Source: a virus. Taken from it: DNA of 33,833 nucleotides. This document shows, in pieces, positions 8,121-30,346 of the stretch. A program made the position numbers and the translations under genes. The stretch's first letter is position 1, and the number at the start of each line of letters is the position of its first letter. The notes beneath the pieces were generated by a model. The model was not told the DNA's origin and did no database searches. It saw only the letters and a program-made list of their open reading frames with translations. The stretch is taken from IMG/VR virus record IMGVR_UViG_3300010331_000009. The stretch is one strand, 5' to 3'.

Positions 8121-8122
8121 CG

Positions 8123-14232: not shown

Positions 14233-14266
14233 TCGGAGTGTCAGAGCGCCCATATATGATGCGACG

Positions 14267-14902: not shown

Positions 14903-14945
14903 TTGTCTAGACCCATTCCGCTGCAGACCCGCGTCCTACTAAAAC

Positions 14946-15025
14946 GACACGAGCCCGAAAGTGGGAGTTTTCGCCTGAGGGAGCCGCTGCCGACACGAAA
15001 CGCTTTCGCGGCTGACACGAAACGC
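14946..15025 (+). repeat. Three direct GACACGA repeats in the 134-bp non-coding gap before the packaging genes (candidate cos/terminase recognition region)
   Basis: GACACGA at 14946, 14992 and 15014, spaced 46 and 22 bp apart. The last two extend to GACACGAAACGC. The gap 14903-15036 has no ORF. Confidence 0.5.
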
Positions 15026-15039
15026 ACCATCAAGCCATG
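15009..15039 (+). promoter_or_regulatory. 31-bp conserved leader ending in a start codon (copy A)
   Basis: cggctgacacgAAAcgcaccatcaagccATG is 28/31 identical to 17549-17579. Confidence 0.6.
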
Positions 15040-15384
15040 GAAACCAAGGTGTGTGACTGCGGATGCGGTCGAGAATTCGAGGTAGAGGAAGGGCGCCCGG
15101 GCAGACCGCGACGCTACTTCGCACGTGCCTGCAGGAAGCGCGCCGAGCGCAACCGACAGCAGAACGCCACGTGGATCCGCGCCTACGAGGGCGAGCTCCA
15201 CATCCAGAGCGATGCGCCCACCAAGCAGATCACCAATGCGGTCGCTGAGTCCTCGACTATCGCCGCCGCCTTCCGCCGTCTGGCGATCGAAGAGCCCAAT
15301 CCGCGCCTGGCCGCGGGCTGCGAAGCCATGTATCTCGAGATAATCGCCGCTCTCGAGCGCAACTTCCCCGGGTGGTCGGCATGA
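15037..15384 (+). CDS. Hypothetical protein with an N-terminal zinc-ribbon-like motif; first gene of the late block
   Basis: 115-aa ORF with CDCGCG....ARACRKR. Confidence 0.7.
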   Translation: METKVCDCGCGREFEVEEGRPGRPRRYFARACRKRAERNRQQNATWIRAYEGELHIQSDAPTKQITNAVAESSTIAAAFRRLAIEEPNPRLAAGCEAMYLEIIAALERNFPGWSA

Positions 15385-16025
15385 CGAAGGGCCGCATACC
15401 CAAGGATGAAGCGACTCGCACCGGGCATCGCGCCGCCGTAGGGCAGGGCGAGTCGATCGAGGTCGCCCCTGTGTCCGCGAAACTGGTCGGCGCCGAGCCT
15501 CCGGCCGGGCTCTCCCCGCTCGCCTGCGAGGTCTGGCGGGTGTGTGTCACCGACATGGTTGCGCTCGGCCACCTCAGAGAACCCGATCTGCTGCAGCTGC
15601 GCAACTACAGCGTGCAGGCGGCGATCGCCATCGAGTGCGAGGCGACCATCGAGGAGTACGGCGCGATGATGAAGGAGCCGATCATCGCGACCGATCGGGA
15701 GACGGGAATCGCAGAGGTAGTGGGCTGGAAACTCAAGGCCAACCCCGCGTGCAAGCTGCACCGGGAGTCATCGAACACCGTGCGGCTGCTCGCCTCCGAC
15801 CTCGCGCTCACGCCAATGGCACGTATCCGCGGAAACCTCATGGCCATCGCGACTGCCTCGATCGCCATCGGCATCAAGGACGACCTGGAGGCCGACCTCG
15901 AAGCCGAGGATCTGGCGCTGATGCAGGCGAAGAAGCAGCCCAAGAAGCTGCCGGCGCCCAAGAAGCCCAAGAAGACGACCGCAAAGAAGCGCGAGAAAAC
16001 GACCGCGAAGAAGGACGGCAAGTGA
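15381..16025 (+). CDS. terS: Terminase small subunit (P27-family-like)
   Basis: ATGA overlap start at 15381. Position immediately upstream of terL. Contains ...ACEVWRVCVTDMVALGHLREPDLLQLRNYS... and a Lys-rich C-terminal tail. Confidence 0.8.
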   Translation: MTKGRIPKDEATRTGHRAAVGQGESIEVAPVSAKLVGAEPPAGLSPLACEVWRVCVTDMVALGHLREPDLLQLRNYSVQAAIAIECEATIEEYGAMMKEPIIATDRETGIAEVVGWKLKANPACKLHRESSNTVRLLASDLALTPMARIRGNLMAIATASIAIGIKDDLEADLEAEDLALMQAKKQPKKLPAPKKPKKTTAKKREKTTAKKDGK

Positions 16026-17548
16026 GCGCGGAGAAGACCGCCGCCAAACCACGCCCCACCAAGAAGGCATCCCCGCGTTCACCGGCGCGCAAGCGCCTGC
16101 CGGCCAAGCCGAGATACTCAGAGCTCGGGCTGCACAAGGCACGCATGGTCGCGGCGTTCACGCGCAAGCACCTCATCCACGTCGACGGCGAGCCGCCACC
16201 AAACGGTGTCGCGTTCCAGCCGATCGAGTTCGCGGACTTCCAGCTCGAGAACATCGTCCTGCCGATCTTCGCGAACGTGGACGCGAAGGGTAAGCGACGC
16301 ATCAAGAAGGTCCTCATCGGCCTGTCGCGAGACGGTGCGAAATCTGAGGTAGCGGCGTGTCTGGTCTTGGCGATCGCGTTCCTCGAGCCGAAGTACCAGG
16401 GGCAGTACTACTTCGTGGCCCGCGACAAGCCCCAGGCGCGTGCCGTCTTCAACAAGCTACGCACCATGGTGCTGCACGACCCGCTGCTGCGCCGCGCGTG
16501 CGACGTGCAGAAAGACGTCATCTACATCAAGGAGACCGGGGCCAAGTTCGAGGTCCTGCCGGGCGACGAGAAGAGCGTCCAGTCAAAGCACGCTGACGTC
16601 GTGGTCGTAGACGAGTACCACGTGCACAAGAACGACCACGTCCTCAACGCCATGACGTCGGGCATGATCGGCAACTGGGACCGTGGCGCACTGGTGATCG
16701 TGCTATCGACGGCGGGCCCGGTGCGCAAGGGGCCGCTCTGGGAGCTCATCGCCAAGTGGAAGAAGGACAAGGCCGCGCACGTCTACTGGTGCGGCGCCGA
16801 CGACGAAGACGACATGCACGACCCGAAGGTGTGGCGCAAGGCGAACCCCATGCCGTGGATCTCCATGGCCGCGCTGAGGCACGCGCACGACACGCTCCCC
16901 CCGTGGGACTTCGAGCGGTATCACCTCAACCGATTCCCGTCGACGGGCAAGATGATCGCGTTCGACTCCAAGTCCTGGGACGCGCTGGCCGCCATGTCGG
17001 TCATCGATCCCGCGCTTCCGTCGTACCTGTCCGCCGATGCGTCGTTCTCCCGCGACTCGACGGCCTTCGTCCTCGACCAGGTCGACGAGGACGGCATCCA
17101 CAACTGGGTGGCGTGGATCATCTACCCGGACGAACCCGGTATGCCTATCAATCGTGGGCTGATGATGTCCACGGCCCTCGACATCCTCAGCCAGTTCTAC
17201 GTCGAGCGCATGATCTGCGACAAGAACTACTTCGTGCTCGAGATGATGGAGCTCGCCAACCAGCACGGCATCGACGTTGAGGCCTACCGCCAGAGCGCCG
17301 AGAACATGGCGCGCGCCTACGACGTGACCTGGTCGGTCGTCTCTTCCCAGCGCGCCCGGCACGGCGGGGAAAAGGGGCTGCGCGAGCAGGTGCTCAACGC
17401 CGCTCAGGAGCCCACCGCATACGGCCCGCGCCTCGGCAAGATCGAGGAAGCCCGCAAGATCGACGCTGCGGTGGCGCTCGTCATGGTGACATTCGTCGCC
17501 GAGTCCGAGTGGCAGCTGACGGCCGGCGGCGCGCAGGTCTCGTTCTGA
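16022..17548 (+). CDS. terL: Terminase large subunit
   Basis: GTGA overlap start at 16022 (alternative ATG 16145). The Walker-A-like motif GLSRDGAKSE is deviant, with an extra Ala before the Lys. Walker B is VVVVDEYH. Size and position before the portal fit. The track ORF from 15542 is an off-gene extension. Confidence 0.88.
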   Translation: MSAEKTAAKPRPTKKASPRSPARKRLPAKPRYSELGLHKARMVAAFTRKHLIHVDGEPPPNGVAFQPIEFADFQLENIVLPIFANVDAKGKRRIKKVLIGLSRDGAKSEVAACLVLAIAFLEPKYQGQYYFVARDKPQARAVFNKLRTMVLHDPLLRRACDVQKDVIYIKETGAKFEVLPGDEKSVQSKHADVVVVDEYHVHKNDHVLNAMTSGMIGNWDRGALVIVLSTAGPVRKGPLWELIAKWKKDKAAHVYWCGADDEDDMHDPKVWRKANPMPWISMAALRHAHDTLPPWDFERYHLNRFPSTGKMIAFDSKSWDALAAMSVIDPALPSYLSADASFSRDSTAFVLDQVDEDGIHNWVAWIIYPDEPGMPINRGLMMSTALDILSQFYVERMICDKNYFVLEMMELANQHGIDVEAYRQSAENMARAYDVTWSVVSSQRARHGGEKGLREQVLNAAQEPTAYGPRLGKIEEARKIDAAVALVMVTFVAESEWQLTAGGAQVSF

Positions 17549-17579
17549 CGGCTGACACGCCCCGCACCATCAAGCCATG
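17549..17579 (+). promoter_or_regulatory. 31-bp conserved leader ending in a start codon (copy B)
   Basis: cggctgacacgCCCcgcaccatcaagccATG, immediately after the terL stop. Confidence 0.6.
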
Positions 17580-17885
17580 AACACATCCCTGGTCATCAAG
17601 CTCCTCGTGATCGCTGCCGTCGTCGGGCTGGCGCTCTTGTCCACTCGCGGCGTCTACCTGCACCGGATGTTGCGCAGGACCGTGGCCGTCCACCTGAAGA
17701 GCGGCACGTCCATGCGCGGCGTGCTGCAGGGCGTCTACGTCGACAGCATAGTGCTCGTGCATGCGTCGGCAGCTCCGAGCGGCGCGAAGGAGTTCACGCC
17801 TGTGGACGGCGCCCAGGTGATTCCCAAGGCGAACGTCGACTGGATGCAGGACCTCAACACCGTCGCCGCCGGGGAGGTCTCGTGA
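17577..17885 (+). CDS. Small membrane-anchored hypothetical protein between terL and portal
   Basis: N-terminal TM segment LVIKLLVIAAVVGLALL. 102 aa, with a GTGA overlap into the portal gene. Confidence 0.7.
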   Translation: MNTSLVIKLLVIAAVVGLALLSTRGVYLHRMLRRTVAVHLKSGTSMRGVLQGVYVDSIVLVHASAAPSGAKEFTPVDGAQVIPKANVDWMQDLNTVAAGEVS

Positions 17886-19186
17886 CCCTCCTGCTGAGCA
17901 ACGGCCTGCCTACTTCCATCGCCGAGGTCACCCCGGGCTTCTCCATGGCCCCTCGGGTGTTCTCTGATCCGAGCGACACCTACAAGGCCATGGCATACGA
18001 AGCGATCTACCGCCGCCAGCCGGCGGTGTTCTCGGTCGTGAACCGGCTGCTGTACGGCATGTCGCGTCTGCCGCTCAAGGCCTACCAGTTCGGCGAGGAC
18101 GGCGAGAGCCGACAGCACGTCCGCTCCGGGGATCTCCCGACGCTCGTGCGCCAGCCTTGGCCGCGTCACTCGAGGCGCGACCTGATCGCGGCACTCGGAT
18201 TCGACTTGCTGGTCAACGGCAAGTGCCTCGCGTGGAACTTCCGCGGGCGTGCCGGCATGACTCCCGACCAGGTGTGGCCGGTGCCATGGTCCTGCGTGCA
18301 GCCCTACAGCGACGCGCGCGGGATCTACAACTTCCACATCACGATCGGCGGCACCATCTACGTCGTCGACCCGCGAGATGTCGTGTATCTCGAGCTTCTC
18401 GGCGGGGGCGTGTCTCCCCTCGAGCCGCTCCGCCGCACGATCGGGCTGGAAGAGGACGCCATCAAGTGGCAGTCCGAGGCGATGCACAACTCGTTCTCGG
18501 CCAAGGCCATCTACACGACGAAGGCCAACGTCACCAACGAGCCGGTGATGAAGGCGCTGCGCGCCGGACTCGACGACCTCTACCGAGGCCCGAGTGGCAA
18601 GCAGTACGCGATCTTCGGCGAGGGAAGCGACGTCAAGCCGCTCACTGGCATGTCGGCCGTCGACCTGGACCTCATCAAGCAGAAGCAGTCCTCCATCGAG
18701 GCCATATGCGCGTGCTACGACACCCAGCCTGCGGTGCTCGGCTTCTCGACCACCGGCCAAGCGACCACCTACGCCAGCGCCCGCGAGTGGCGCCAGTCGT
18801 TCTACGTCGACGGCATCGGCCCCAAGGTCGACCTGATCGAGTCTGGCCTGAACAGCCAGCTCGTGTTCCCCGAGGCCGCATGGTCCGGGATGTTCCTCGA
18901 GTTCGACCTGTCCGCGCTGCTGAGCCCGGACAGCGAGTCCCAGGCACGCGCCGCGATGCTCTCCATGCAAAGCGCCAGCTCGACGATCAACCAGCGCCTG
19001 CGCGATCGCAACGAACCGCCCATAGACCATCCCCTCGCCGACACCATCTTCGTGCCGGCCAACATGATCCCGCTCGAGCAGTACGACCAGACGCTCGCGG
19101 CAGATATCGCCGCTACGCCCGCCGCGCTCGCGGCTAAGACCGCCGCAGACAAGCTCGTCTCCGACGCACTGACGGCAAAGGAGTAA
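17882..19186 (+). CDS. Portal protein (HK97-type)
   Basis: 434 aa. Positioned between the terminase and the prohead protease. The composition and length are typical of HK97-family portals. Confidence 0.85.
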   Translation: MTLLLSNGLPTSIAEVTPGFSMAPRVFSDPSDTYKAMAYEAIYRRQPAVFSVVNRLLYGMSRLPLKAYQFGEDGESRQHVRSGDLPTLVRQPWPRHSRRDLIAALGFDLLVNGKCLAWNFRGRAGMTPDQVWPVPWSCVQPYSDARGIYNFHITIGGTIYVVDPRDVVYLELLGGGVSPLEPLRRTIGLEEDAIKWQSEAMHNSFSAKAIYTTKANVTNEPVMKALRAGLDDLYRGPSGKQYAIFGEGSDVKPLTGMSAVDLDLIKQKQSSIEAICACYDTQPAVLGFSTTGQATTYASAREWRQSFYVDGIGPKVDLIESGLNSQLVFPEAAWSGMFLEFDLSALLSPDSESQARAAMLSMQSASSTINQRLRDRNEPPIDHPLADTIFVPANMIPLEQYDQTLAADIAATPAALAAKTAADKLVSDALTAKE

Positions 19187-19191
19187 AGACG

Positions 19192-20055
19192 ATGGATCCT
19201 CTAATCATTCCGAAGGCCATGAGCCGCGTTGGCCGGGCGAAGCTCGCGGACAAGCCATTCCCGAAGGCGACAGGCCCCTGGTACGAGGTCGGGGCCAAGT
19301 CGGTGGATATCGGCGCGACCGTGACCGACATCTGGGTCTACGACGTCATCGGCGACGACTGGTGGGATCCGTCGCTCACAGCCAAGGAGCTATGCCAGAC
19401 CATCGTCGGCATCACGACCGACGAGATAGTGCTGCACATGAGTTCCCCAGGCGGGTGCGTATCCGACGCGATCGCGATCTTCAACGCGCTGCGCCAGCAC
19501 CCGGCCAAGGTGAGCGCCATCATCGAAGGCCACACCGCGAGCGCCGCGACCTACCTCACACAGGCCGCCGATCCGGGCTGCATCACCATGTACGACAACA
19601 CCCTCTTCATGATCCACAAGCCGTGGACGTACGTCTTCGAGGCTGGCAATGAAGACTACCTCGAGCAGGTCATGACCGAGGTAGTTGCTTATCTGCGCAA
19701 GTGCACCTCGACGCTTCTCGGCGGATACATGGCGCGGTGCACCAAGACCGACGTCGAGCTGATGGACGCGCTGGCCGCCACCGTGTACCTGGATGCAGAC
19801 GAGGCGCTCGACTGGGGATTCGTCGACACCATCAAACCAGCTCTGGAAGCGGCGGCATGCGCTCACGTCGGGTCGACCCCGTTCGCGGCCATGGGCTTCG
19901 CTCCCATCCCCGCACGACTCGAGGCGCTCGCGGCTGAAGCTGCGCCCGATAACACCGGAACCACTCCCACGAAGGTGCCGGCTGACACGCCACGCATCGT
20001 GGGTCACGTAGTAGCGACGCAATTGACGTCGAGCCAGCTGAGAGGAAGGTCCTAG
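19192..20055 (+). CDS. ClpP-like (S14) prohead/head-maturation protease
   Basis: AAGGAG upstream. Contains ...IVLHMSSPGGCVSDAIAIFNALRQH...IIEGHTASAATYL....MIHKPW, a ClpP-type Ser/His context. Confidence 0.88.
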   Translation: MDPLIIPKAMSRVGRAKLADKPFPKATGPWYEVGAKSVDIGATVTDIWVYDVIGDDWWDPSLTAKELCQTIVGITTDEIVLHMSSPGGCVSDAIAIFNALRQHPAKVSAIIEGHTASAATYLTQAADPGCITMYDNTLFMIHKPWTYVFEAGNEDYLEQVMTEVVAYLRKCTSTLLGGYMARCTKTDVELMDALAATVYLDADEALDWGFVDTIKPALEAAACAHVGSTPFAAMGFAPIPARLEALAAEAAPDNTGTTPTKVPADTPRIVGHVVATQLTSSQLRGRS

Positions 20056-20057
20056 AT

Positions 20058-21374
20058 ATGAGCAAGTTGCTTAAAGCTCGCCAGCGAGCCGACGCCATGA
20101 CCGCCGAGGCGTCCCAGGCATGGGCTGCTGTACTGGAGGCACGGAAGGTTCTATCTTCCGCCATCATCCCTGAAGGAGCCAAGCTCGAGGATCTGCCCGA
20201 GCTCAAGGCATCCGAAGCCGCGATGGACGCGTTCGACCTTGCGTCCAAGACCGCCGAGGCCGCCGTCGCGGACTACGACCGTCTCGCCGTCGCTCTGGGC
20301 GAGAACGACGTCAAGGGCGTCATCCCCGCTGCGGTGTCGCGCATCGGTCAGGCCGCCGCTACCGTCAGTGTCGGTCGCGAGGCGCTCGACCTCGGCCGTT
20401 CGTTCACCGACAGCGACGTCTTCGCCGAGGTGAAGAAGTCCAACCCGAGCGGCCCCGGTCGCATCGGCACCACCGGATCGTCCATGATCTCCACGCGTGA
20501 GCAGGCTCGTGCCGCCATCACGCTTCCGGTCGGCGACAGCGTCATCGCCCCCGACCAGCTGCCGGGCATCCGCTCGCTTCCGCTCATGCCCGCGCTCACC
20601 ATCCTCGATCTCGTGAGCATGCTCACCACCGACTCGACTCAGGTCAAGTGGGTCATCGAGAAGCTCTTCACCAACAACGCCGCCGGTCGCGCCAACGGTG
20701 CCGCCGCCGCCGAGTCCAACCTCGAGCTGGACATCGTCAAGTACGACGTCAAGAACATCTCGCACTTCACCGCCGCTCCTCGCGAGATCTTCGACGACGT
20801 CGCCGGCCTGCAGTCCCTGGTCGATACGAAGATGATCTGGGGCCTGCGTCGCAAGCTCGCCAGCCAGCTCTTCGTGGGCGACGGTCTCGGCGAGAACCTC
20901 ACCGGTATCTACAACGCCGAGGGCATCGGCTCGATCGTGCGCGCCGGCGTGACCGCCGACGCCCTGATCGGCAGCATCTTCGACGCGCAGCAGGTCGTGC
21001 TCGACAGCTACGGCGAGATGCCGTCCGCCACGTTCCTGTGCCCGGCCGACTACAAGACGCTGCGCTTCGCTCGCGAGAGCTCTGCCGGCGTCGGTACCGC
21101 CACCGGTGGCTACCTGTACGGCCCGCCCAGCCAGAACAACCCGATCGACATCGACGGCGTACTGGTCCTGCGTCACCCGGACATCACCGCGGGCAACCCC
21201 ATCACGGGTGTCTGGCGCGAGCTCGCCGTCTGGATGCACGAGGGCTTCAGCGTCTCGGCGACGGACTCGCACGCGGACTACTTCACCAAGCGCATGATCG
21301 CGATCTTCGCGAACTTCCGCGCGGCCGCCGGCCCCATGTCGACGCAGGCTTTCTGCGAAGTCACCCAGGCCTAG
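20058..21374 (+). CDS. Major capsid protein (HK97 fold family)
   Basis: 438 aa directly after the protease. It has an N-terminal coiled-coil delta-like region, and a hairpin lies downstream. Confidence 0.88.
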   Translation: MSKLLKARQRADAMTAEASQAWAAVLEARKVLSSAIIPEGAKLEDLPELKASEAAMDAFDLASKTAEAAVADYDRLAVALGENDVKGVIPAAVSRIGQAAATVSVGREALDLGRSFTDSDVFAEVKKSNPSGPGRIGTTGSSMISTREQARAAITLPVGDSVIAPDQLPGIRSLPLMPALTILDLVSMLTTDSTQVKWVIEKLFTNNAAGRANGAAAAESNLELDIVKYDVKNISHFTAAPREIFDDVAGLQSLVDTKMIWGLRRKLASQLFVGDGLGENLTGIYNAEGIGSIVRAGVTADALIGSIFDAQQVVLDSYGEMPSATFLCPADYKTLRFARESSAGVGTATGGYLYGPPSQNNPIDIDGVLVLRHPDITAGNPITGVWRELAVWMHEGFSVSATDSHADYFTKRMIAIFANFRAAAGPMSTQAFCEVTQA

Positions 21375-21402
21375 CACGACCCGCTCGCTGAGCTGACGGA
21401 TT

Positions 21403-21432
21403 GACCCCGCCTTGCATCGTCGGGGCGGGGTC
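21403..21432 (+). terminator. Terminator-like hairpin after the major capsid gene
   Basis: GACCCCGCC (21403-21411) pairs with GGCGGGGTC (21424-21432). It is followed by TTCCTC, a weak U tract. Confidence 0.55.
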
Positions 21433-21484
21433 TTCCTCATCCAGCCGGCGCGTCGACAACGAATCGACCGGAAAGGGAGGCCCC

Positions 21485-21919
21485 ATGTATACGACCAAGG
21501 AACGGATCTACGGAACGGACGGCAACGGCCGCCGCAGCCTGCTCCATATCGAGGGCGCGCGTATCTCCGACGCTCGCGCTGCGGAGCTCGGCCTGATCAA
21601 GGGCAAGGCTCCCGCAGCCACGAGGGCCACGGGCGCTGCTCCGGGGACCGAGGCTCCCGCCAAGGTCAGTTACGAGGACCTCAAGACCGAGGCCACCGCG
21701 CTCGGCCTTGAGTTCGCCGGCAACATCGGCTCGGTCAAGCTCACCGTCCTAATCGACGAGGCGAAGGCCAAGGTGGCAGCGGCCGCAACTTCGACAGTGC
21801 CGGCAGACGGCACGAAGTCGACGGTCGACGGCGTAGAGGTCACCTGGAGCGAGGCGGGCGGCCAGTGGATCCGCGACGACGATGGCGAGCCCTTCGTCAA
21901 CCCGGAGCCGCAGGAGTAG
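21485..21919 (+). CDS. Hypothetical head-associated protein (HeH/SAP-like segment)
   Basis: GGGAGG precedes ATG 21485. YEDLKTEATALGLEFAGNIGSVKLTVLIDEAKAK resembles a HeH/Rho-N-type motif. The gene sits after the capsid gene. Confidence 0.65.
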   Translation: MYTTKERIYGTDGNGRRSLLHIEGARISDARAAELGLIKGKAPAATRATGAAPGTEAPAKVSYEDLKTEATALGLEFAGNIGSVKLTVLIDEAKAKVAAAATSTVPADGTKSTVDGVEVTWSEAGGQWIRDDDGEPFVNPEPQE

Positions 21920-21927
21920 GCACACCC

Positions 21928-21951
21928 GCGGGGCTGGTCCGCCAGCCCCGC
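21928..21951 (+). terminator. Perfect 10-bp GC hairpin (terminator-like, no U tract)
   Basis: GCGGGGCTGG (21928-21937), loop TCCG, CCAGCCCCGC (21942-21951). Confidence 0.45.
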
Positions 21952-22022
21952 TCGACGAGCGCACCGCACCCGCCGCCGCAGGGCCGGTGCGTTCACCGAG
22001 CGGGACAACCCGAGAGGACCCG

Positions 22023-22355
22023 ATGAAGCACGTCGACGGACAGCCCTATTGCTCACTTCCCTGGTGCGGTGCCTCGTTCGGGGCCCCGAGCCATAAGCGC
22101 GTGTTCAGGGTCGCCGGCGAACTCGTTGAGCTCACCTACCCGTCGATGATCGAGATGCACGACGTGGTCCCCCGCTCCCAGGGCGGAGATCCCGAGGACC
22201 TCGAGAATAACGTGCCGATCTGCCTCGAGTGCCACCACGCTCACCACTCGACCGGCTCCGGTCGTCTCATCTTCTGCGGCACCGCGGTGTCTCGCGCCGA
22301 CGGCCGCACCGGCACGCTCGTACTCGGCGATCGCGAAGGGTTGGATGCGCTATGA
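22023..22355 (+). CDS. HNH endonuclease (third; free-standing, within the structural module)
   Basis: Contains MHDVVPRSQGGDPEDLENNVPICLECHHAHH, an HNH motif. ATG 22023 lies within track ORF 21882..22355. Confidence 0.8.
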   Translation: MKHVDGQPYCSLPWCGASFGAPSHKRVFRVAGELVELTYPSMIEMHDVVPRSQGGDPEDLENNVPICLECHHAHHSTGSGRLIFCGTAVSRADGRTGTLVLGDREGLDAL

Positions 22356-22672
22356 AGACTGTCCTCACTATCGCCCTGGCGGCTCTTCTCGCAGCCGGCC
22401 TGGTCATCCTCTGTGGCTCGTTCGCTGATCAGCCTGAGCCGCGTGCGATCGCGCCGCTGGACCTTGATTCAACGATGCCGGTCATCGTCCGCCACGAGAC
22501 TCCGGACGGCGTGCAGGTCGCGCCTCCGGAGACCATGCCGCTCTGGAAGTACGTCGAGCAAGAGCGCGGCGGATCGGATACCGACCTTCGGCGCGCGCTC
22601 GAGTGCGACATACACGCGGGCGACACGTCACTCCATCTTACGCACGAACTCATCGACGGCCGGAGCTTCTGA
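22352..22672 (+). CDS. Secreted/membrane-anchored hypothetical protein
   Basis: ATGA overlap start. N-terminal signal-like MKTVLTIALAALLAAGLVILCGSF. Confidence 0.65.
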   Translation: MKTVLTIALAALLAAGLVILCGSFADQPEPRAIAPLDLDSTMPVIVRHETPDGVQVAPPETMPLWKYVEQERGGSDTDLRRALECDIHAGDTSLHLTHELIDGRSF

Positions 22673-24000
22673 TGGGCGCATACATAGGAGCCGCGATCGA
22701 CCTACAGACACAGCCAGATGGCACGATCCGAGACGCTGTGACCGGCGCGCTTGCGGCCATCAACCGCACTGGAAGCGTCTACGGTATCGACCCGATCACG
22801 GGCAAACTCAAGGCGTTTGGTGCCAACCTGCTTGCCGCCGAGAAGTACCCGAACGGTGGTGGCTATTGGGCGGCAGGAGAGAGTGCCGCCACAAACCGAT
22901 TCATCAACTCCATGAACACTTCGGACGTGAACGCTGATGGGTTCGCGGACGGTTTCGTGTTTCAAGGCTATAACGCCACCGACACAAAGAGCCTGATTGA
23001 CGCTTCGGATTTCTTGGACGGAGCGAAGTGGCAACGTATCTCCATGACGGGGACTGCTGCTCAGAGCATCTACAACGGGAGGGCGTCGATAAAGGACGTT
23101 CTGAATGGCTTGGCACTCGCGCCGAGCACCACATATTCGGTCAGTCTCTTCTACCGATATGCGCGGCAGACAGGCTGTAATCCGGGAGCGTTCTGCGAGT
23201 TCACCGACGCGGCAGGAGCGTACTACGGACTAGTGGGTGCGACATCATCTGGCGGCGCGATGGTGCTGGATAACTCCGCTACGATCAGGCGATGCACCTA
23301 CACGATCACTACACCTGCGGCTCTAGGTTCTGCGGCAAAGATAACCCTGAACGTAGGCAACGCAAGCCAGTGGCATGAAGGCGACACGTTCGGAATCGAC
23401 TTCACAGCCATTCAGGTTGAACTCGCATATCCGACCTCGTTCATCCCGACAACGACTGCTCCGGTTCTCCGACCATACGATCAGATAACCTACCCGAGTG
23501 CGGCGCTTGGCTCGGGTAGCCTGACGGTGGCCGTTGTCGCTGTCGTCCCTTGGAACGTCTACGGGACGTTGTTCGATTGGGTTGGCACGGGCGGCCGCGC
23601 GGTTAACGACCAGCAGATAGGCCGACAGGGTACTGGCTTCTGGGCTTGGGCGCGGTCTAACTCTCTGCCGCTTTCTGCTTCGACCATACCAACGGCTAAT
23701 GTCACCGCTGGCGTTCCTCACGTGTTCGCCGGGCGGTGGGACGTGGCGGCAGGGGCAATCAAACTCTCCGTGGACGGCGTTCACAGAACAGCCTCCACTG
23801 GATACACACGGCCACTTGGCTTGGGAGTGAACTTCGGGATTGCGAACTCATCCGGCTACTTGCACCGGATGGTTGCATTCACGTCCCTGCTTTCCGATGC
23901 CGAGATAGCCGCGCTCTCTACATCGCTCCTCGCTGGCACGCTCAACGCACGACGACGACGCCCGATCTTCCGCACTCTCGGTGGAATCACGAAGGGATAG
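22672..24000 (+). CDS. Two-jelly-roll protein: CBM-like N-terminal half plus LamG/concanavalin-A-like C-terminal domain (fibre/receptor-binding or decoration candidate)
   Basis: ATG 22672 overlaps the upstream TGA by 1 nt. The C-terminal HVFAGRWD..GAIKLSVDGV....IANSSGYLHRMVAFTSLLSDAEIAAL matches the Laminin-G_3 pattern. A/T-ending codons are clearly more frequent than in flanking genes. Confidence 0.7.
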   Translation: MGAYIGAAIDLQTQPDGTIRDAVTGALAAINRTGSVYGIDPITGKLKAFGANLLAAEKYPNGGGYWAAGESAATNRFINSMNTSDVNADGFADGFVFQGYNATDTKSLIDASDFLDGAKWQRISMTGTAAQSIYNGRASIKDVLNGLALAPSTTYSVSLFYRYARQTGCNPGAFCEFTDAAGAYYGLVGATSSGGAMVLDNSATIRRCTYTITTPAALGSAAKITLNVGNASQWHEGDTFGIDFTAIQVELAYPTSFIPTTTAPVLRPYDQITYPSAALGSGSLTVAVVAVVPWNVYGTLFDWVGTGGRAVNDQQIGRQGTGFWAWARSNSLPLSASTIPTANVTAGVPHVFAGRWDVAAGAIKLSVDGVHRTASTGYTRPLGLGVNFGIANSSGYLHRMVAFTSLLSDAEIAALSTSLLAGTLNARRRRPIFRTLGGITKG

Positions 24001-24003
24001 ACC

Positions 24004-24894
24004 ATGGGAACACAGACGATTCCATTCTTCATCGACAAGGCAGACGGGACGGGTATCCTCATTGGCGTCGCGGCAACCGCCACAGTCCAGTACGGTTCCG
24101 CCGCCGCCGCTTCCACTCCGGTCACGATTTGCGGAGAGGCTTACAGCGTCACAGTGGACGACACGCAGAATGCCGCCGTGAAGATTGTCGCGGCCGGAGC
24201 AACCACGTTCGGTTTCTCTATTGCCAGAGTCCCGCCTGACATGACCACAGAGGCGAAGGCAACAGCCAACAAGAACACACTTATTCAGGGCGATAACGGG
24301 CTGGCCGACATCTTGATGAATTTGGGTGTTAGAGTCGCCACGAACGCCGACAAGGGCGGGTATACGCTCACGCCTGCTTACGACCGCGCCAAGACAGCGG
24401 CGAAGCCAGAGGAAGTAGCGGTCACGGTGCCTGCGCCTGTCGTGAATCCAACGCCGGTCACGGTCAACCCGACTCCGGTGACAGTCAACCCCACGCCGCT
24501 CACTGTGAATCCCACCGTGTTGGATTCGGCGGAGCGCGCCGCGATCACAGCGGAGATCGAGCGCGCCGGTGGAATGCTTGCTGAGACCAAGGCAGACACC
24601 ACCGTGATCCTCGAAGCTACGACCTTCACGGCCAACGAGGCGATGCTCACGCAGGACTCGCGGGACGTCGATGGATTCATCATCGGGATCACGACTCCTT
24701 CGGCGGCGGTCACAGCGTTTCTGCGGACTGACGTGGCTCGAGCTAACCCGAAGCGCGCCGCGACCGCCGAGACGGACGGCGACTGGCAGCTGCCGGCCAA
24801 GCGCGGCGCCGGCTACACGCTCGTGTTCACACACGATGGATTCCGCAATCCGGACGGATCCGCCGATGTGACAAGGGAGGTCGATGTACCGTGA
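24004..24894 (+). CDS. Hypothetical structural protein with a VNPTPVT tandem repeat
   Basis: 296-aa ORF containing 3.5 copies of a 21-bp (7-aa) repeat at 24442-24518. Lower GC3, like the upstream gene. Confidence 0.7.
   Translation: MGTQTIPFFIDKADGTGILIGVAATATVQYGSAAAASTPVTICGEAYSVTVDDTQNAAVKIVAAGATTFGFSIARVPPDMTTEAKATANKNTLIQGDNGLADILMNLGVRVATNADKGGYTLTPAYDRAKTAAKPEEVAVTVPAPVVNPTPVTVNPTPVTVNPTPLTVNPTVLDSAERAAITAEIERAGGMLAETKADTTVILEATTFTANEAMLTQDSRDVDGFIIGITTPSAAVTAFLRTDVARANPKRAATAETDGDWQLPAKRGAGYTLVFTHDGFRNPDGSADVTREVDVP
24442..24518 (+). repeat. 3.5 x 21-bp tandem repeat encoding VNPTPVT/VNPTPVT/VNPTPLT/VNPTV
   Basis: Units start at 24442, 24463, 24484 and 24505. The units differ mostly at synonymous positions. 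Confidence 0.85.
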
Positions 24895-25541
24895 CAGCCG
24901 AGCTGATCCCCATCGAATCGACCGCAGGCGCGCAGCTCTGCACGCTCGAGCAGGTCAAGTCCCGCCTCGGCATGGACAAGTCCGGCGACGACGACAAGAT
25001 CTCGGCCCTGATCGCGGCCGTCCTGCCGACGTTTTCCAAGCGCCTGCGACGCGAGCTCATGCCGCACGTGACCGCCCCGCGCTCCTTCGACGTCGAGGGC
25101 GCGTTCGTGGCCCTGGGCGCCTCGGACCTGCGCTCCGCGTCCAGCGTCGTGCTCACGCTCGACGACACCGATAGGGTGCTGACCCCCGGCATGGACTACA
25201 TGCTGTGGCCCTTCGACGCCCTGACGGGCACCGCGGGCTACCTCAAGATATCGCGCAACATCAGCCTGCGCTCCACGTGCTTCGATGCGTTCGGCATCGT
25301 GCCGCTCATCGTGACCGGCGACTGGGGCATCTGGGACCGCGTCGAAGACGTACCCGCAGACGTCAACATCGCGGCCATCGAGACCGTGCTCTCCTGGCTC
25401 GATCGCCCCTCGGCCGAGATCGCGATGATGGGCGGCGGGGATCCGCGCTACATGGAGCCGGCCGCGCCTCAGACGTGGGACATCCCCGCAAGCGCGTGGC
25501 GCAAGCTCTCGGCGTACAACCGCCCGGTCGGGGTGGTGTGA
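24891..25541 (+). CDS. Head-tail connector/adaptor (gp6-like)
   Basis: GTGA overlap start. CTLEQVKSRLGMDKSGDDDKISALIAAV resembles the gp6-like connector N-terminal motif. It is the first neck gene. Confidence 0.7.
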   Translation: MTAELIPIESTAGAQLCTLEQVKSRLGMDKSGDDDKISALIAAVLPTFSKRLRRELMPHVTAPRSFDVEGAFVALGASDLRSASSVVLTLDDTDRVLTPGMDYMLWPFDALTGTAGYLKISRNISLRSTCFDAFGIVPLIVTGDWGIWDRVEDVPADVNIAAIETVLSWLDRPSAEIAMMGGGDPRYMEPAAPQTWDIPASAWRKLSAYNRPVGVV

Positions 25542-25542
25542 G

Positions 25543-25992
25543 ATGAAGTCCAGTGTGCCCGCACTCAAGGTCGCGCTCAAGGCGCGTCTCAAGGCTGACC
25601 CCGCCTTCGCCGGCGAGGACACGATGGTATCGATCGGCAACCCCCATCCGGCCCGTGCCACGCGCGAACTCGTCGCCATCGGCAAGGTCTCCAACCGCGT
25701 GACCGAGTACCGAGGCAGCATGTCCCAAGGCCGAGAGACCTACGACATAGCAGTGCTGGCAAGCGTCATCGGGTCCGCGGCCCTCGGTCACGAGGAGCTG
25801 CTCGTCAAGGCATATGAGCTGGCCGCGGATGTGGTGGCGAGCGTCCTGGACTGGCGGAACAACGCCCAGCGATATGACGGGATCGTCGACATCATCACCG
25901 AGGGCGTGTCCGACGACGACGAGGCGGTCGACACAGACGGTCGTGAGGTATCGGTCACGCTCTCGTTCCACGTGACCGCAAGCATCGTCTGA
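25543..25992 (+). CDS. Neck/tail-completion protein
   Basis: 149 aa. Called from its position between the connector and the gp10-like gene. Confidence 0.6.
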   Translation: MKSSVPALKVALKARLKADPAFAGEDTMVSIGNPHPARATRELVAIGKVSNRVTEYRGSMSQGRETYDIAVLASVIGSAALGHEELLVKAYELAADVVASVLDWRNNAQRYDGIVDIITEGVSDDDEAVDTDGREVSVTLSFHVTASIV

Positions 25993-26519
25993 TGGCTGTC
26001 GACCGCGCCGGCGAGGCGAGGCAGTCGGTCTCCGCCTACATCGACCCGACCCAGCTCAAGGCGCTCAAGCGCGCCATCCAGGACGCGGGCAAGGAAGCCC
26101 GGCGCTCCGTGCGCGCACGGCTCAAAGAGGCCGGCACCGTCGTGGCCGTCGAGATCAAGAGCCGCACACCTGTCGGGAGAGTCAAAACAACCGAACGGAA
26201 GCGTGTGGTCGGAGCGACTCTCTCGTCCCGTATGGGAAAGGGAGGCGCCACGCGCACGGCCGCGCACGGCAACGGTCTGCTCAAGCGATCCACGAAGCTG
26301 CGCATGGGATCCCTCTCGGTCGCGGTCTACAACGACGCCCGCGCCGTGAGCCGCAAATACCCCGGCGGATACCGCTACGGCAAGCGCATCGAGTTCGACC
26401 CGAGCTACTCCTCCCGCTACGCGTTCTTCTATCCGGGCTTCGATGCGTCCAAGGACCAAGCCCTGAAGCTCTTCGACAAGCTGCTCGACGACATCACGCG
26501 CGAGTACCTGCGCGGCTGA
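25992..26519 (+). CDS. HK97 gp10-like neck protein
   Basis: Contains LKALKRAIQDAGKEARRSVRARLKEAGTVVAVEIKSRTPVG, the gp10-family pattern. ATG overlaps the upstream TGA by 1 nt. Confidence 0.65.
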   Translation: MAVDRAGEARQSVSAYIDPTQLKALKRAIQDAGKEARRSVRARLKEAGTVVAVEIKSRTPVGRVKTTERKRVVGATLSSRMGKGGATRTAAHGNGLLKRSTKLRMGSLSVAVYNDARAVSRKYPGGYRYGKRIEFDPSYSSRYAFFYPGFDASKDQALKLFDKLLDDITREYLRG

Positions 26520-26558
26520 CACCCCCGCGACTATGGGTGTGAGAGATGGGAGCACGAC

Positions 26559-26714
26559 GTGAAGCTGACCAAAGACCACAAGCGCCTGCTGCGCGAGACC
26601 GGCGGACTGATCGTCGGCGGGCGGCTCGTGACGTATAAGGAGCCCAAGCCCCGCGTGAAGCCCGAAGCGGTCAAGGCCGCAGACAAGGAGACCGGCCATG
26701 ACCCCAAGCTATAA
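26559..26714 (+). CDS. Possible 51-aa Lys-rich small protein (not in the ORF track)
   Basis: GGGAG (26547-26551) lies 7 nt before GTG 26559. Hand-translated: VKLTKDHKRLLRETGGLIVGGRLVTYKEPKPRVKPEAVKAADKETGHDPKL. It overlaps the next gene by 17 nt. Confidence 0.35.
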   Translation: MKLTKDHKRLLRETGGLIVGGRLVTYKEPKPRVKPEAVKAADKETGHDPKL

Positions 26715-27666
26715 CGGCGGAGAGCACTGGTTGGGCTTCAAGCCCGAGCTGGTTCCGGGGGTGGCCGAGGCGACCGTGACCACGTTCCTCGTCACCGAGT
26801 CCGTCTCCATGAACCCCAACCCCAAGCCAATCGAGCGCAAGGCCCAGATGGCGACCGCTCGCCGCCTGCCTTCGCGCCGCGGATGGATCGCCCCGGACGG
26901 CAAGACCAGCTGCGAGATCCACGCCAGCCAGCCCCAGCCGTTCTACTGGGCGCTCGGCAAGGTTGTCAGCACGCAGCCCGCTCTGGCGACCGACCCGTTG
27001 GTATTCCTCCACACGATCACGGACGGTGGGGCCCCCGTCTCGTTGACGGCAGAGGCCGACCAGGTCTACTCGAAGAAGAAGCAGTCCGGGGTGCGCGTCG
27101 ACAAGCTCACCCTCAAGGCCCAGGTCGGAGAGATGGCCGCACTCGAGATCGCATGGTTCGGCCTGACGCATACCGAGGGAGCCGAGCTCACGTCGGTCCC
27201 CGTGTTCCCGACGGCTCCGATGACGTGCGTCGCGATGACCGTCAAGATCGCCGGCCAACAGGATCTCCGAATCCCAGAGGTGGAGATCGTCCTGGACAAC
27301 GCGATCGAGCAGCTCCCCGTGCTCGAGGACGCCCAGGGTGGACCTCACGTGGCGCGCCGCAAGGAGGCGCTGAAGGTCACGGGCAAGCTCAAGTTCATCG
27401 ACTTCCCCGCCGAGCAGCTCGCCGTGATCCGCAACGCGGGCAGCTTCGAGCTGGTCACCGATCTTCTCGGAGACGTCATCAGCAACGAGTACCGCGAGTT
27501 CGTCCGCATCACGCTTCCCGCATGCCAGTACACCGGCGGTCTGGACGCCGAGTCGGGCTCCGCGATCATCACCGGCGATGCCAACTTCGAGGGCTTCTAC
27601 GACGTCGTCACCGGCGAGCAGGTCGTCATCGAAGTCCAGGACACCGTATCCGTCATCACCGAGTAA
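26698..27666 (+). CDS. Major tail protein
   Basis: 322 aa, immediately upstream of the chaperone pair and the tape measure gene. The call is based on conserved gene order. Confidence 0.75.
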   Translation: MTPSYNGGEHWLGFKPELVPGVAEATVTTFLVTESVSMNPNPKPIERKAQMATARRLPSRRGWIAPDGKTSCEIHASQPQPFYWALGKVVSTQPALATDPLVFLHTITDGGAPVSLTAEADQVYSKKKQSGVRVDKLTLKAQVGEMAALEIAWFGLTHTEGAELTSVPVFPTAPMTCVAMTVKIAGQQDLRIPEVEIVLDNAIEQLPVLEDAQGGPHVARRKEALKVTGKLKFIDFPAEQLAVIRNAGSFELVTDLLGDVISNEYREFVRITLPACQYTGGLDAESGSAIITGDANFEGFYDVVTGEQVVIEVQDTVSVITE

Positions 27667-27680
27667 GAGGAGGCCGACCC

Positions 27681-28169
27681 GTGCGCATCATCCGAGACTC
27701 CGACACCGTCGAGTACGTCGACGAGTCGGGCGACAAGCTCGTACTACTCTCCGCTCCGCGCCAGCGCGACGTCGAGTCCTCCGACCTCATCGAGCGCGAT
27801 GAGGCCATGGGCCAGATGCAGGCTTTGAAGAAGAGCGGCATCGACACCGACGCTTTCATGGCCGATGCCAAGAAGGACCGCGACGCGCTCGAGGCCGCCA
27901 AGGAAGCGGTCAAGACCTCGCTGCCCGCGGCCAAGGTGCGAGAGTTCCGGCTCAAGTCGCTCGGCATCAGGCTCGTCATCGGTGGAGAGAACATCGGCGG
28001 AGAAGCCATCGTCACGTCGTACCGCGATATGGACCCGATCTCGGCCGCGTGGATCGACAAGTGCGTCGGCGAGACCTGGATGGGCGCCCTGCCGTCTGAT
28101 GAAGACACACGCGGCGAGGGTGCTGATGCTCCAGTGCCTGTCGGCGCCACCGTCAGCACCCCCGCTTAA
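27681..28169 (+). CDS. Tail assembly chaperone (gpG-like)
   Basis: AGAGGAGG (27666-27673) precedes GTG 27681. 162 aa, acidic, positioned between the major tail protein and the tape measure. Confidence 0.75.
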   Translation: MRIIRDSDTVEYVDESGDKLVLLSAPRQRDVESSDLIERDEAMGQMQALKKSGIDTDAFMADAKKDRDALEAAKEAVKTSLPAAKVREFRLKSLGIRLVIGGENIGGEAIVTSYRDMDPISAAWIDKCVGETWMGALPSDEDTRGEGADAPVPVGATVSTPA

Positions 28170-28347
28170 CGCACTGAGCCGCAACCCGCGCATCGCCTCT
28201 CTGATCGGGCTCTACTCGCAGGCCAAAGACATGGGTGCACTGCCCAACCCGGGCGCGCTGCTCGACCAGAGAGCCGACCACTACGCGTTCTTCGCGATCT
28301 TCTCAGCCGCGATAGCCGAGCACAAATACATCACGAACAAGGGGTGA
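27681..28347 (+). CDS. Frameshift-extended tail assembly chaperone (gpGT-like), requiring a +1 or -2 shift near 28158-28164
   Basis: 28170-28347 is open only in the frame +1 relative to G. That stretch has no plausible start before an ATG at about 28230, and it ends 4 nt before the tape measure ATG. The run ACCCCCG (28158-28164) lies 3 nt before the G stop (TAA 28167-28169). Confidence 0.55.
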
Positions 28348-28351
28348 TCCC

Positions 28352-30346
28352 ATGGCCGCCAACGCACGCATCCTTGAGATCATCCTTCGGGCCAAAGACG
28401 AGTCGAGCAAGGTGTTCGACCAGGTATCGAAGTCGAGCGCGACGTTCTCCGACAAGCTCGGCTCGGTAGGCAAGTCGGCGACGCTGGGCGTGAGCGTCCC
28501 GCTGGCCGGTGCGGGCATCGCCGTGGCCACGCTGGCCGCGAACTTCGAGACGTCGATGAACGTCCTGCAGACCAACGCCGGCGCGACCGGTGCCGAGATG
28601 CAGAAGCTCGAGACGTACGCCAAGAAGATGGGCGCCGAGACCGTGTTCTCCACTCAGGACGCGGCAGACGGCATGCTCGAGCTTTCCAAGGCCGGCATGA
28701 ACACCGAGCAGATCATGGGCGGTGGTCTGGCCGCTGCTATGTCCATCGCCGCGACCGAGGGTATGGCCCTCGGCGATGCCGCGACGGTCACCTCCAACAC
28801 CATGAACATGTTCGGGCTGAAGGCTGGCCAGGCGGCCACGATCGCCGATACGCTGGCGGGCGCGTCGGCAGGGTCGACCGCCAGCGTGCTCTCCCTCACG
28901 GAAGGTCTGGCCCAAGTGGGCCCCGGCGCCAAGAACGCGGGGCTATCACTCAACGAGACCGTAGCCGTGCTCGCGGCGTTCGACGATGCAGGGGTCAAGG
29001 GATCCGACGCCGGCACGTCGCTCAAGACGATGCTCGTTAGTCTCGTTCCCAAGACCGACAAGGCCGCGTCGATGATGAAGAGCCTCGGTCTGTCGTTCGT
29101 AGACAGCAAGGGCAACATCGACGACGTCGCCACGGTCGCGCAGAAGCTCAAGGACAAGCTCGGCCCTCTATCCCAGGAGCAGCGCACGGCTGCCATGGCC
29201 ACCATGTTCGGTTCGGACGCGACGCGCGCGGCCTCGATCCTGATGGACCAGGGCGCCACCGGCATCCAGAAGTACATCGCGTCGACGGAGCAGTCGGGCA
29301 AAGCGGCCGAGATGGCCGGTGCGCGCCAGAAGGGCGCCGCCGGAAGCATCGAAGCGATGATGGGCTCGCTCGAGTCGGCCGGTATCGCGCTCGGGCAGGC
29401 GCTGCTACCGATCATCACCAACATCGCCAAGGATGCGGCCGTTGTCGTCAACAACTTCGCCGGGTGGTGGGAGGCGATCGGTCCGGGCGGGCAGAAGGTC
29501 GCGCTTATCCTCACCGCGATTGTCATCGCCGCCGGCCCGCTGGCCAGCATCATCAGCGTCATCACCGGGGTGGTCGGCCTGCTCTCGTCCGCCTTCGTGA
29601 TCGAAGGCGTCACCGCCGCCGCCGCATGGCTCGCCACGATCTGGCCCGTCGCTCTCGTCATAGCCGCGATCGCGCTGGTGGCAGGCGGCATCTACCTGCT
29701 CATCAAGAACTGGGGAACCATCGGCCCGTTCTTCAAAAAGCTCTGGGCTGGGGTAACCAAGGCGTTCTCGGGATTCTGGAGCGGGACCAAGACGTTCGTG
29801 AAGAAGTGGGGCGTCGAGATTCTGGCGGTCCTCGTGCCCTTCATCGGCGTTCCTCTCTTCATCATCAAGCATTGGAATGTCATCGGACCCGCGCTGTCCA
29901 AGATCTGGTCCGGGGTATCGAAGGGCGCGAAGAAGGGCATCGACTCCGTCGTCGGGTTCGTGCGCTCGCTGCCGGGCAGGCTGCTCGACGCGCTGAAGGG
30001 GCTTGCAGCCACCATCACGCGTCCGATAGATGCAGCCTGGAACGTGCTCCAGAAGCTCAACCCGTTCATGCGGCACTCCCCGTCATTGGTGGACAACGTG
30101 TTGGCCGGAGCCAGCACCATCGCCAGCGCCTACGCGGGCGTATCGGGAATCAGCATCGCCAGCCCGACACTCGGCGGCCTTTCCATGCCGGCGTTCGCCG
30201 GAGCACAGTCGCTGGGGCAGGGGCCCAGTCTGCCCGGGCAGACAGGCGCCGGGGGCCAAGCGTGGCGCATCTATCTGGACGGCCGTGAGCTGACACGTGC
30301 GACCGCTAAGACCACTGCCGCCAACGGGCGCAGCGGGGCGCGATGA
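28352..30346 (+). CDS. Tape measure protein
   Basis: 664 aa with a TP901-type core-like N-terminal region (...AGMNTEQIMGGGLAAAMSIAATEGMALGDAATVTSNTMNMFGL...), hydrophobic segments in the C-terminal half, and the expected position. Confidence 0.88.
   Translation: MAANARILEIILRAKDESSKVFDQVSKSSATFSDKLGSVGKSATLGVSVPLAGAGIAVATLAANFETSMNVLQTNAGATGAEMQKLETYAKKMGAETVFSTQDAADGMLELSKAGMNTEQIMGGGLAAAMSIAATEGMALGDAATVTSNTMNMFGLKAGQAATIADTLAGASAGSTASVLSLTEGLAQVGPGAKNAGLSLNETVAVLAAFDDAGVKGSDAGTSLKTMLVSLVPKTDKAASMMKSLGLSFVDSKGNIDDVATVAQKLKDKLGPLSQEQRTAAMATMFGSDATRAASILMDQGATGIQKYIASTEQSGKAAEMAGARQKGAAGSIEAMMGSLESAGIALGQALLPIITNIAKDAAVVVNNFAGWWEAIGPGGQKVALILTAIVIAAGPLASIISVITGVVGLLSSAFVIEGVTAAAAWLATIWPVALVIAAIALVAGGIYLLIKNWGTIGPFFKKLWAGVTKAFSGFWSGTKTFVKKWGVEILAVLVPFIGVPLFIIKHWNVIGPALSKIWSGVSKGAKKGIDSVVGFVRSLPGRLLDALKGLAATITRPIDAAWNVLQKLNPFMRHSPSLVDNVLAGASTIASAYAGVSGISIASPTLGGLSMPAFAGAQSLGQGPSLPGQTGAGGQAWRIYLDGRELTRATAKTTAANGRSGAR

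Follow-up and report, generated by a model that had tools for sequence, protein, structure and literature searches.

Results

Gene organization of the window and its late junctions

We analysed a 33,833-nt stretch of viral DNA (IMG/VR record IMGVR_UViG_3300010331_000009; hereafter the window), in which a 20-nt bipartite element, GCTGACAC-N6-SANNNT (S = C or G), stands at four gene junctions that we read as probable late promoters. With bases 1–123 identical to 33711–33833, the window represents a closed, 33,710-bp genome, and its source is a temperate HK97-like siphovirus of 33.7 kb. G+C content is 65%, and nearly all genes lie on one strand. Integrase (211–1497) and a CI/LexA-like repressor with HTH_3 and Peptidase_S24 domains (1406–2035) are encoded on the minus strand; an early cro-like gene occupies 2193–2426, and the early block runs to an HNH gene ending at 14902. 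The late block begins, ahead of TerS (15381–16025), with a gene for a 115-aa protein (15037..15384, +). TerL (16022–17548) is followed by a 102-aa protein gene (17577..17885, +) ahead of the portal gene; the portal, a ClpP-type prohead protease and the major capsid protein (20058..21374, +) are encoded between the 102-aa gene and the connector genes. After the capsid gene come the connector genes, a 51-aa gene with a GTG start (26559–26714) and the tail tube gene (26698–27666), followed by the tape measure and endolysin genes. An 808-aa protein matches ParB only, at its N-terminus. The same prophage is found integrated beside a tRNA-Cys gene (tRNA-Cys/Gly/Val cluster, L063 11826–12400) in a 130-kb metagenomic contig.

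The 20-nt element, not its 8-mer half, is enriched

The upstream half of the element, GCTGACAC, had been noticed by an earlier reader as an 8-mer recurring at late gene junctions. Its six positions (15011, 17551, 19981, 26515 and 30289 on the plus strand, 33005 on the minus strand) and the plus-strand distances to start codons (26, 26, 77, 44 and 54 nt) are all correct, and the TGA of the copy at 26515 is indeed the stop codon of the open reading frame (ORF) 25992–26519. As also reported, copies fall in non-coding DNA or in differing codon phases (phase 1 at 19981, phase 2 at 26515, phase 3 at 30289). The expectation of 0.5 copies per strand from a uniform model is an underestimate: with dinucleotide-preserving shuffles, 2.1 copies are expected over both strands, compared with six observed, and 3 of 100 shuffles reach six. 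At least five plus-strand copies are found for 711 other 8-mers, 326 of which have at most one copy on the minus strand, and the most enriched words are codon-driven, such as CTCAAGGC with 12 copies. Since these words behave in the same way through codon usage, the count and strand bias of the bare 8-mer prove nothing, and whole-genome 8-mer enrichment, in which words of the CTCAAGGC kind dominate, was discarded as evidence.

The complete element behaves differently. GCTGACAC-N6-SANNNT occurs at 15011, 17551, 19981 and 26515, always on the plus strand and always in the late region, where 0.02 occurrences are expected, and none of 100 shuffles reaches four. Correction for composition thus removed the significance of the bare 8-mer and left the 20-nt element strongly enriched and strand-specific. 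A weight matrix trained on 27 unique sites from relatives only, with the window left out, assigns 21–36 bits to the four sites and at most 8 bits to everything else on both strands. The two remaining 8-mers, at 30289..30296 (+) in the tape-measure ORF, where CCGCTA stands in place of the second box (below 8 bits), and at 33005..33012 (−) in a minus-strand ORF, again with no second box, are chance matches and not members of the family; the sense orientation of the latter, which the earlier note had counted with the others, is a coincidence. A real element had therefore been noticed for a reason that fails statistically, and two of its six copies were noise.

Site 1 (15011..15030, +; GCTGACAC gaaacg CACCAT; 35.5 bits) lies in the 134-nt gap between the HNH gene and the 115-aa gene, whose ATG at 15037 comes 6 nt after the final T with no Shine-Dalgarno sequence. 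Site 2 (17551..17570, +; GCTGACAC gccccg CACCAT; 34.5 bits) begins 2 nt past the stop codon of TerL, ahead of the 102-aa gene, whose ATG at 17577 again comes 6 nt after the box. These two sites form a 36-nt repeat of 86% identity that extends through the ATG. Site 3 (19981..20000, +; GCTGACAC gccacg CATCGT ggg; 20.9 bits) is embedded in the 3′ end of the prohead protease ORF upstream of the capsid gene, and site 4 (26515..26534, +; GCTGACAC ccccgc GACTAT ggg; 23.6 bits) precedes the 51-aa and tail tube genes.

The element is conserved in position, spacing and strand

Megablast against deposited phage genomes and an exact scan of IMG/VR with a 29-nt form of the motif gave no match. Loci from relatives were found through an alignment of portal homologues, a single portal sequence having returned none as a query. 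Portal homologues are at most 52% identical to that of the window, and the relatives' contigs keep the gene order. In the nearest loci (L004–L012, portal 49–52% identical), GCTGACAC is present three to seven times on the sense strand, with an antisense copy only in L005. Their sense strands have from three to five or six bipartite sites per locus, all at junctions equivalent to those of the window, and their antisense strands have none; the flanking DNA does not align. Across relatives with portals 31–52% identical, the core [C/G]TGAC[A/G]-N7-NANNNT stands at four junctions, upstream of the gene next before TerS, of the small gene that precedes the portal, of the capsid gene and of the tail-tube block. 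The positions are thus conserved at equivalent junctions, a check that the earlier note had set. In more distant clades the architecture is retained and the flanks differ (GGGTGACA, GAGTGACA and GGGTGACG).

Counts were pooled over 59 non-redundant sequences (58 loci and the window). [CG]TGAC[AG]-N7-[ACG]ANNNT occurs 155 times in the sense and 23 times in the antisense orientation, while spacings of 4–6 and 8–10 give 11–46 occurrences on either strand; with TGACA alone at spacing 7 the numbers are 96 and 10. Loci of similar G+C content with portal identity below 30% have the motif at background level. A site precedes the small gene ahead of the portal in 23 of 35 loci at or above 31% portal identity, as opposed to 2 of 19 below it, and 27 of 51 loci have a site 33–100 nt before the capsid gene. 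The protease encoded before the capsid belongs to Peptidase_S78 in L004 and to the ClpP type in the window, and the site is present in both; because it survives this change of protease family, the capsid-side site belongs to the upstream region of the capsid gene and not to the protease coding sequence.

Upstream of site 1, an extra half-site, GCCGACAC(GAAACGC), lies at 14989..14996 (+), exactly 22 bp away, and a third GACAC is found at 14946. Equivalent half-sites occur 12–22 bp upstream in relatives, at the 115-aa-gene promoter only, and sites 2–4 have no repeat at 11, 22, 33 or 44 bp upstream. The same interval includes a probable cos region (14938–14973). A conserved element, CCCGAAAnTGGnGnTTTC, lies at 14954–14973 in the window, and the contigs of six independent relatives (L005, L021, L032, L034, L040 and L072) start 14–17 nt upstream of it, which places the left end of virion DNA probably near 14938, about 73 nt before site 1. 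The half-site GCCGACAC may accordingly be read in two ways, as a second site for a regulatory factor or as a terminase (cosB-like) site.

The proximity of site 1 to this presumptive end, together with repeated half-sites of the kind that cosB has, is what could suggest that the whole motif is a DNA signal apart from expression, whether for terminase and packaging, Chi-like recombination or restriction-modification. Three of the four sites are, however, 2.5–11.5 kb from cos, and in many genomes the motif keeps a fixed placement with respect to start codons. A compositional accident, for which the non-significant 8-mer count would speak, is excluded by the excess over expectation in the window and by the spacing control above. 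We consider it exceedingly improbable that the element is either such a DNA signal or such an accident.

Two invariant bases of the second box and the distance to start codons

When 24 sites from 8 genomes, selected solely by the TGACA core, are aligned without gaps, only two further positions are invariant, the A at position 2 and the T at position 6 of the second box. At the first position of this box, 76 unique TGACA-type sites have C (45), G (26) or A (5) and never T, a base that does occur there in the more distant L070/L071 and L073–L076 loci. An ATG starts exactly 6 nt after the final T in 21 of the 76 sites, other offsets from 0 to 24 accounting for 0–4 sites each. GTG follows at 7 nt in 7 more, so that 28 of 76 have a start codon at 6–7 nt. 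Three junction types show a fixed 26 nt from motif to ATG and no Shine-Dalgarno sequence, the motif spanning about −26 to −19 relative to the ATG. In the window, the genes at 15037 and 17577 match the Shine-Dalgarno core at 3 of 6 and 2 of 6 positions, the poorest among valid gene calls. This geometry, with the start codon 6–7 nt after the T and no Shine-Dalgarno, predicts leaderless mRNAs. In relatives with a homologue of the 115-aa gene, a site of usually this type stands directly before the homologue, and the gene equivalent to that downstream of site 4 is also of this type. About 60% of sites, by comparison, are 30–100 nt from a start codon that has its own Shine-Dalgarno sequence, with leaders of 20–100 nt.

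These features would fit a −10-like hexamer, [C/G]ANNNT, at each site, whose A and T would be A-11 and T-7, the pair flipped out of the duplex by a sigma factor. GCTGACAC would then lie 6 bp upstream of the hexamer and its core TGAC[A/G] at about −24 to −20, with no −35 element. The A and T of a −10 are present 6–7 nt upstream of the predicted start; a T at position 1 and a −35 at 16–19 bp are absent. A scan for consensus sigma-70/SigA promoters returned nothing at the four sites. We also considered TGACA as a true −35 with a 17-bp spacer and rejected it, the sequence at that distance being CCATGG or CATGAA. In mapped actinobacterial promoters, TANNNT lies 7–12 bp upstream of the start and the −35 is not conserved; leaderless mRNAs come from roughly one in four of the genes that have a primary start, with ATG as well as GTG serving as first codon (PMC3898074; PMC4633059). 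When set beside these maps, the geometry of the element matches.

At sites 1 and 2, transcription would start at the A of the ATG (15037 and 17577), yielding leaderless mRNAs. The predicted start for site 3 is at about 20006–20008, so that the capsid ATG at 20058 would follow a leader of about 51 nt that contains a Shine-Dalgarno sequence; for site 4 it is at about 26541, with a short leader carrying GGGAG before GTG 26559 and the tail block. Downstream of the capsid gene, 29 nt past its stop codon, is a 12-bp G+C-rich hairpin (21403..21432, +; −35.2 kcal/mol, z = −3.3), and a second strong G+C-rich hairpin (21925–21950) comes after the gene that follows the capsid. Both are terminator-like, without a long T run, and the first, with site 3, would bracket a capsid transcription unit. 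In the early region, a canonical promoter-like sequence, TTGCAT-N17-TAGACT, lies at 2117–2145 between the divergent CI-like repressor and cro-like genes; because the early cro-like gene has such a promoter, the late sites form a separate class.

The principal sigma holoenzyme alone presumably cannot use the late sites, since the hexamer lacks T1 and a −35 would have to lie about 10 bp farther away than the upstream box does. A factor that reads the −24 element would be needed, be it an unusual sigma factor or a protein of the 'sigma adaptation' type (an adaptor or an activator), and this need would make the promoters late and switchable. Taken together, we favor the view, with some confidence, that the four sites are factor-dependent late promoters without a −35, in which a proximal element at about −24 replaces it and which are read by the multisubunit RNA polymerase of the host. 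The late-regulator binding site proposed in the earlier note comes close to this, except that the element appears to be a complete promoter-like unit and not a binding site formed by the 8-mer.

A possible alternative: action in the mRNA

The motif might instead act in the transcript, through endonuclease processing, stability, or translational enhancement or coupling that sets the ratios of structural proteins; the earlier note had listed processing, stability and coupling among its candidate roles. Confinement to the sense strand at gene junctions would agree with this, as would the three junction types with 26 nt to an ATG that lacks a Shine-Dalgarno, and cleavage just before the AUG could also yield a leaderless mRNA. 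Conserved RNA structure was not detected, however: RNAalifold returned 0 pairs for the 24 sites from 8 genomes, single-sequence folds at sites were no better than shuffles (z of about +0.2), and an Rfam search gave no match. TGAC plus an isolated A and T, separated by a free spacer of fixed length, is a pattern typical of protein–DNA recognition, and the second box has the pattern of a −10. Nor can a role in translation be general when most sites are well upstream of a start codon with its own Shine-Dalgarno. Coupling is impossible at site 1, which is 135 nt past the previous gene and close to the genome end, where no ribosome arrives from upstream; the sites at a fixed 26 nt have no Shine-Dalgarno and the others have their own. 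Neither the processing or stability role nor the coupling role is supported, and we regard action in the mRNA as very unlikely.

Discussion

Layout shared with PafBC and SARP promoters

At promoters without a −35, PafBC takes its place between sigma region 4 and a '−26 element', with contacts at −23 to −28 (PMC8635444). Such promoters, like the sites described here, combine a −10 with a specific proximal upstream element and have no −35, the motif in the window spanning about −26 to −19. The housekeeping holoenzyme needs the factor at PafBC promoters, and we infer the same for the phage sites. The targets differ, being DNA repair genes for PafBC and structural genes in the phage. The RecA-NDp consensus, which reportedly goes back to Gamulin in 2004, is TGTCRGTG-N8-TANNNT with a conserved GTC, whereas the sites here read [C/G]TGAC[A/G]-N7-[C/G]ANNNT with a non-canonical −10 (no T at −12). 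Identity with RecA-NDp was rejected, as a pattern search allowing up to two mismatches matched none of the four sites. Elsewhere in the window, at 14239–14267 in the gap before the HNH gene, TGTCAGAG-N8-TATGAT is followed 6 nt later by ATG 14267 in leaderless geometry; this sequence is 1 base off the RecA-NDp consensus, a single match that is not significant (0.41 expected).

At promoters of SARPs, activator repeats are 11 or 22 bp apart and replace or overlap the −35, the 3′ repeat lying 8 bp from a weak −10, which in afsS is CACTGT (PMC10936776). This weak −10 of SARP promoters (AfsR and ActII-ORF4 in Streptomyces) is of the same type as the second box of the phage element. Site 1 has a copy of the half-site 22 bp upstream, and sites 2–4 are single. 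Spacing in the phage is 6–7 bp and not 8, the heptamer sequence differs, and no OmpR/BTA-domain protein was found in the phage. On this comparison the resemblance to PafBC and SARP promoters is one of layout and not of sequence. To our knowledge, the use of a proximal element in place of the −35 has so far been worked out only for these two cellular regulators, PafBC and the SARPs.

Phage promoters and other oriented repeats

T4 middle promoters, with a MotA box centred at about −30 and the AsiA protein, and those of Thermus phage P23-45, which use a TG-type extension, are cases in which the host's sigma holoenzyme is diverted by a phage to promoters without a −35. In P23-45, the middle and late promoters fall in the extended −10 class and escape the block imposed by gp39 (PMC7403470). 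Homologues of AsiA, MotA and gp39 were not detected in the phage. Class III promoters of the T7 type present the same picture as the phage sites, a conserved sequence of about 20 bp, in the sense orientation only, at late junctions, with a capsid copy and a terminator after it. They require a phage single-subunit RNA polymerase, and searches of the ORFs against PHROGs, Pfam and PDB sequences turned up none; the conserved A and T of the −10 hexamer speak for a sigma factor, and the T7-type reading was set aside. A sigma-54 (−24/−12) promoter has the consensus TGGCAC-N5-TTGC, with GG at −24 and GC at −12. Against this consensus the sites read TGACAC, with GA in place of GG and no GC at the required position, and sigma-54 was likewise rejected.

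Oriented repeats that are not promoters offer a further comparison. Stoperators of Cluster A mycobacteriophages lie in short gaps between genes, are asymmetric and have an orientation that follows transcription (PMC9283540), and on this model the phage sites would be repressor or roadblock sites that halt elongation in the lysogen. The motif is asymmetric and occupies several short intergenic sites in one orientation to transcription, as in phage L5 (PMC9283540), and its TGA in many cases forms the upstream stop codon or comes soon after it. Stoperators, however, are 13-mers bound by the immunity repressor throughout the genome and at the early promoter, which is not the case here, where no site falls outside 15.0–26.5 kb and none is present at the early lytic promoter region (2036–2192) or in the early half. 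The repressor of the window, with its HTH_3 and Peptidase_S24 domains, is of the CI/LexA type and not a monomeric protein with an HTH and a stoperator domain. A roadblock would also leave unexplained a second box conserved only in its A and T, and the start codons placed 6–7 nt from it. We therefore judge a stoperator-like function to be very unlikely.

Start-associated sequences (SAS) of Cluster K mycobacteriophages are repeats in one orientation at start codons, mostly ATG, and are conserved across subclusters (PMC3203893). Like the sites described here, they are conserved, have a single orientation, are tied to start codons and precede genes of different families. SAS are 13-mers with AGGAG, 3–7 bp from the start, in the non-structural arm; the present motif starts 26 nt before the ATG, has no purine-rich core or Shine-Dalgarno sequence, and is associated with structural genes.

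Candidate factors and host

The factor that would read the −24 element could be encoded by the phage or by its host. The 115-aa protein has a zinc ribbon, a basic helix and two further helices, and is 59–79% identical across relatives in which portal identity is only about 50%. Pfam returned no match for it. Being the only non-structural small protein common to most motif-bearing relatives, it is a weak candidate. A 162-aa protein encoded near the end of the early block (13308..13796, +) combines an N-terminal three-helix region resembling a helix-turn-helix (HTH), a CxxC...CxxC arrangement and a coiled coil; it is a second, likewise weak, candidate for a late activator and is not present in all motif-bearing relatives. 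The structural matches of its predicted model, none of them significant, have winged-HTH regulators on top, with the GcrA DNA-binding domain at rank 25 (E = 2.7). In L022, tandem CTGACACAAACAC repeats lie at 5548–5575, just upstream of the homologue of this HTH/zinc protein; the L022 locus uses the TGACG variant of the motif. A WYL-domain protein was not found among the phage proteins scanned against Pfam and PHROGs.

A host factor stays in play because of L070, a more distant relative. At 6700–20351 of a 122-kb contig, this locus (as does L071) contains a compact prophage whose head-tail module is complete and whose non-structural genes, apart from the integrase, number only four, all of them small. 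Its sense strand has seven GGGTGAC[GA]-N7-NANNNT sites, one of which stands ahead of the first operon. The host is probably a high-G+C monoderm, as judged from the endolysin, which has SH3_3 and Peptidase_M15_4 domains, and from the contig of one relative, which is labelled as a Coriobacteriia metagenome-assembled genome (MAG).

Several observations weigh against factor-dependent late promoters of this kind. Searches of the phage ORFs against PHROGs, Pfam and PDB sequences returned neither a sigma factor nor an RNA polymerase, and clustering of the early ORFs of 14 relatives yielded no early protein family common to all that bear the motif. The AlphaFold model of the 115-aa protein is good (predicted local distance difference test, pLDDT, 84.5) but had no match in the PDB; the 162-aa model is poor (pLDDT 65.6). 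In L070, the first two sites, which precede the first operon and the homologue of the 115-aa gene, have T at hexamer position 1, and one of the two precedes non-structural genes, so the motif is not strictly 'late' everywhere. A host-flank protein of the same L070 contig falls in one cluster with a protein whose MAG carries the label Deltaproteobacteria. Finally, the element is 6–7 bp from the −10, closer than that of PafBC (−23 to −28) or of SARPs (8 bp), so the mode of recognition is a guess.

With these points in mind, we advance a more specific scheme as a tentative possibility that we hold to be rather doubtful as a whole. Across a large group of uncultivated, high-G+C temperate siphoviruses, a small adaptor bound to the TGAC[A/G] element at −24 would let the host's housekeeping holoenzyme fire from [C/G]ANNNT, which it would pass over by itself, and produce leaderless late mRNAs. 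Candidate adaptors would be the 115-aa protein, acting by positive feedback, and the 162-aa protein; alternatively, a PafBC-like stress regulator of the host would act directly on the structural promoters of the prophage.

Literature searches found no prior description of this motif or of leaderless late promoters in actinobacteriophages. The element belongs to the known class of factor-dependent promoters without a −35, and its particular form was not found in those searches. Uncultivated phages of a broad group have it, and leaderless late transcripts are predicted for them. If the sites are promoters, these phages use a proximal upstream element in place of the −35, and a simple rule, TGAC[A/G]-N7-NANNNT with ATG or GTG 6–7 nt later for leaderless genes, would mark late transcription units and true start codons in many metagenomic high-G+C phages. 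The sites also point to a factor that can be searched for, and the motif would provide ready-made parts for switchable expression in such hosts.

Two further features of the window concern its other genes. Besides the HNH gene adjoining the terminase genes, there are two small HNH-like genes, at 22023–22355 and 13891–14232, one of which sits in the midst of the head-tail genes. Directly 5′ of the tape-measure gene, in the slot that is the usual place of a tail assembly chaperone pair made by programmed frameshift, are two overlapping ORFs, 27681–28169 and 28126–28347.

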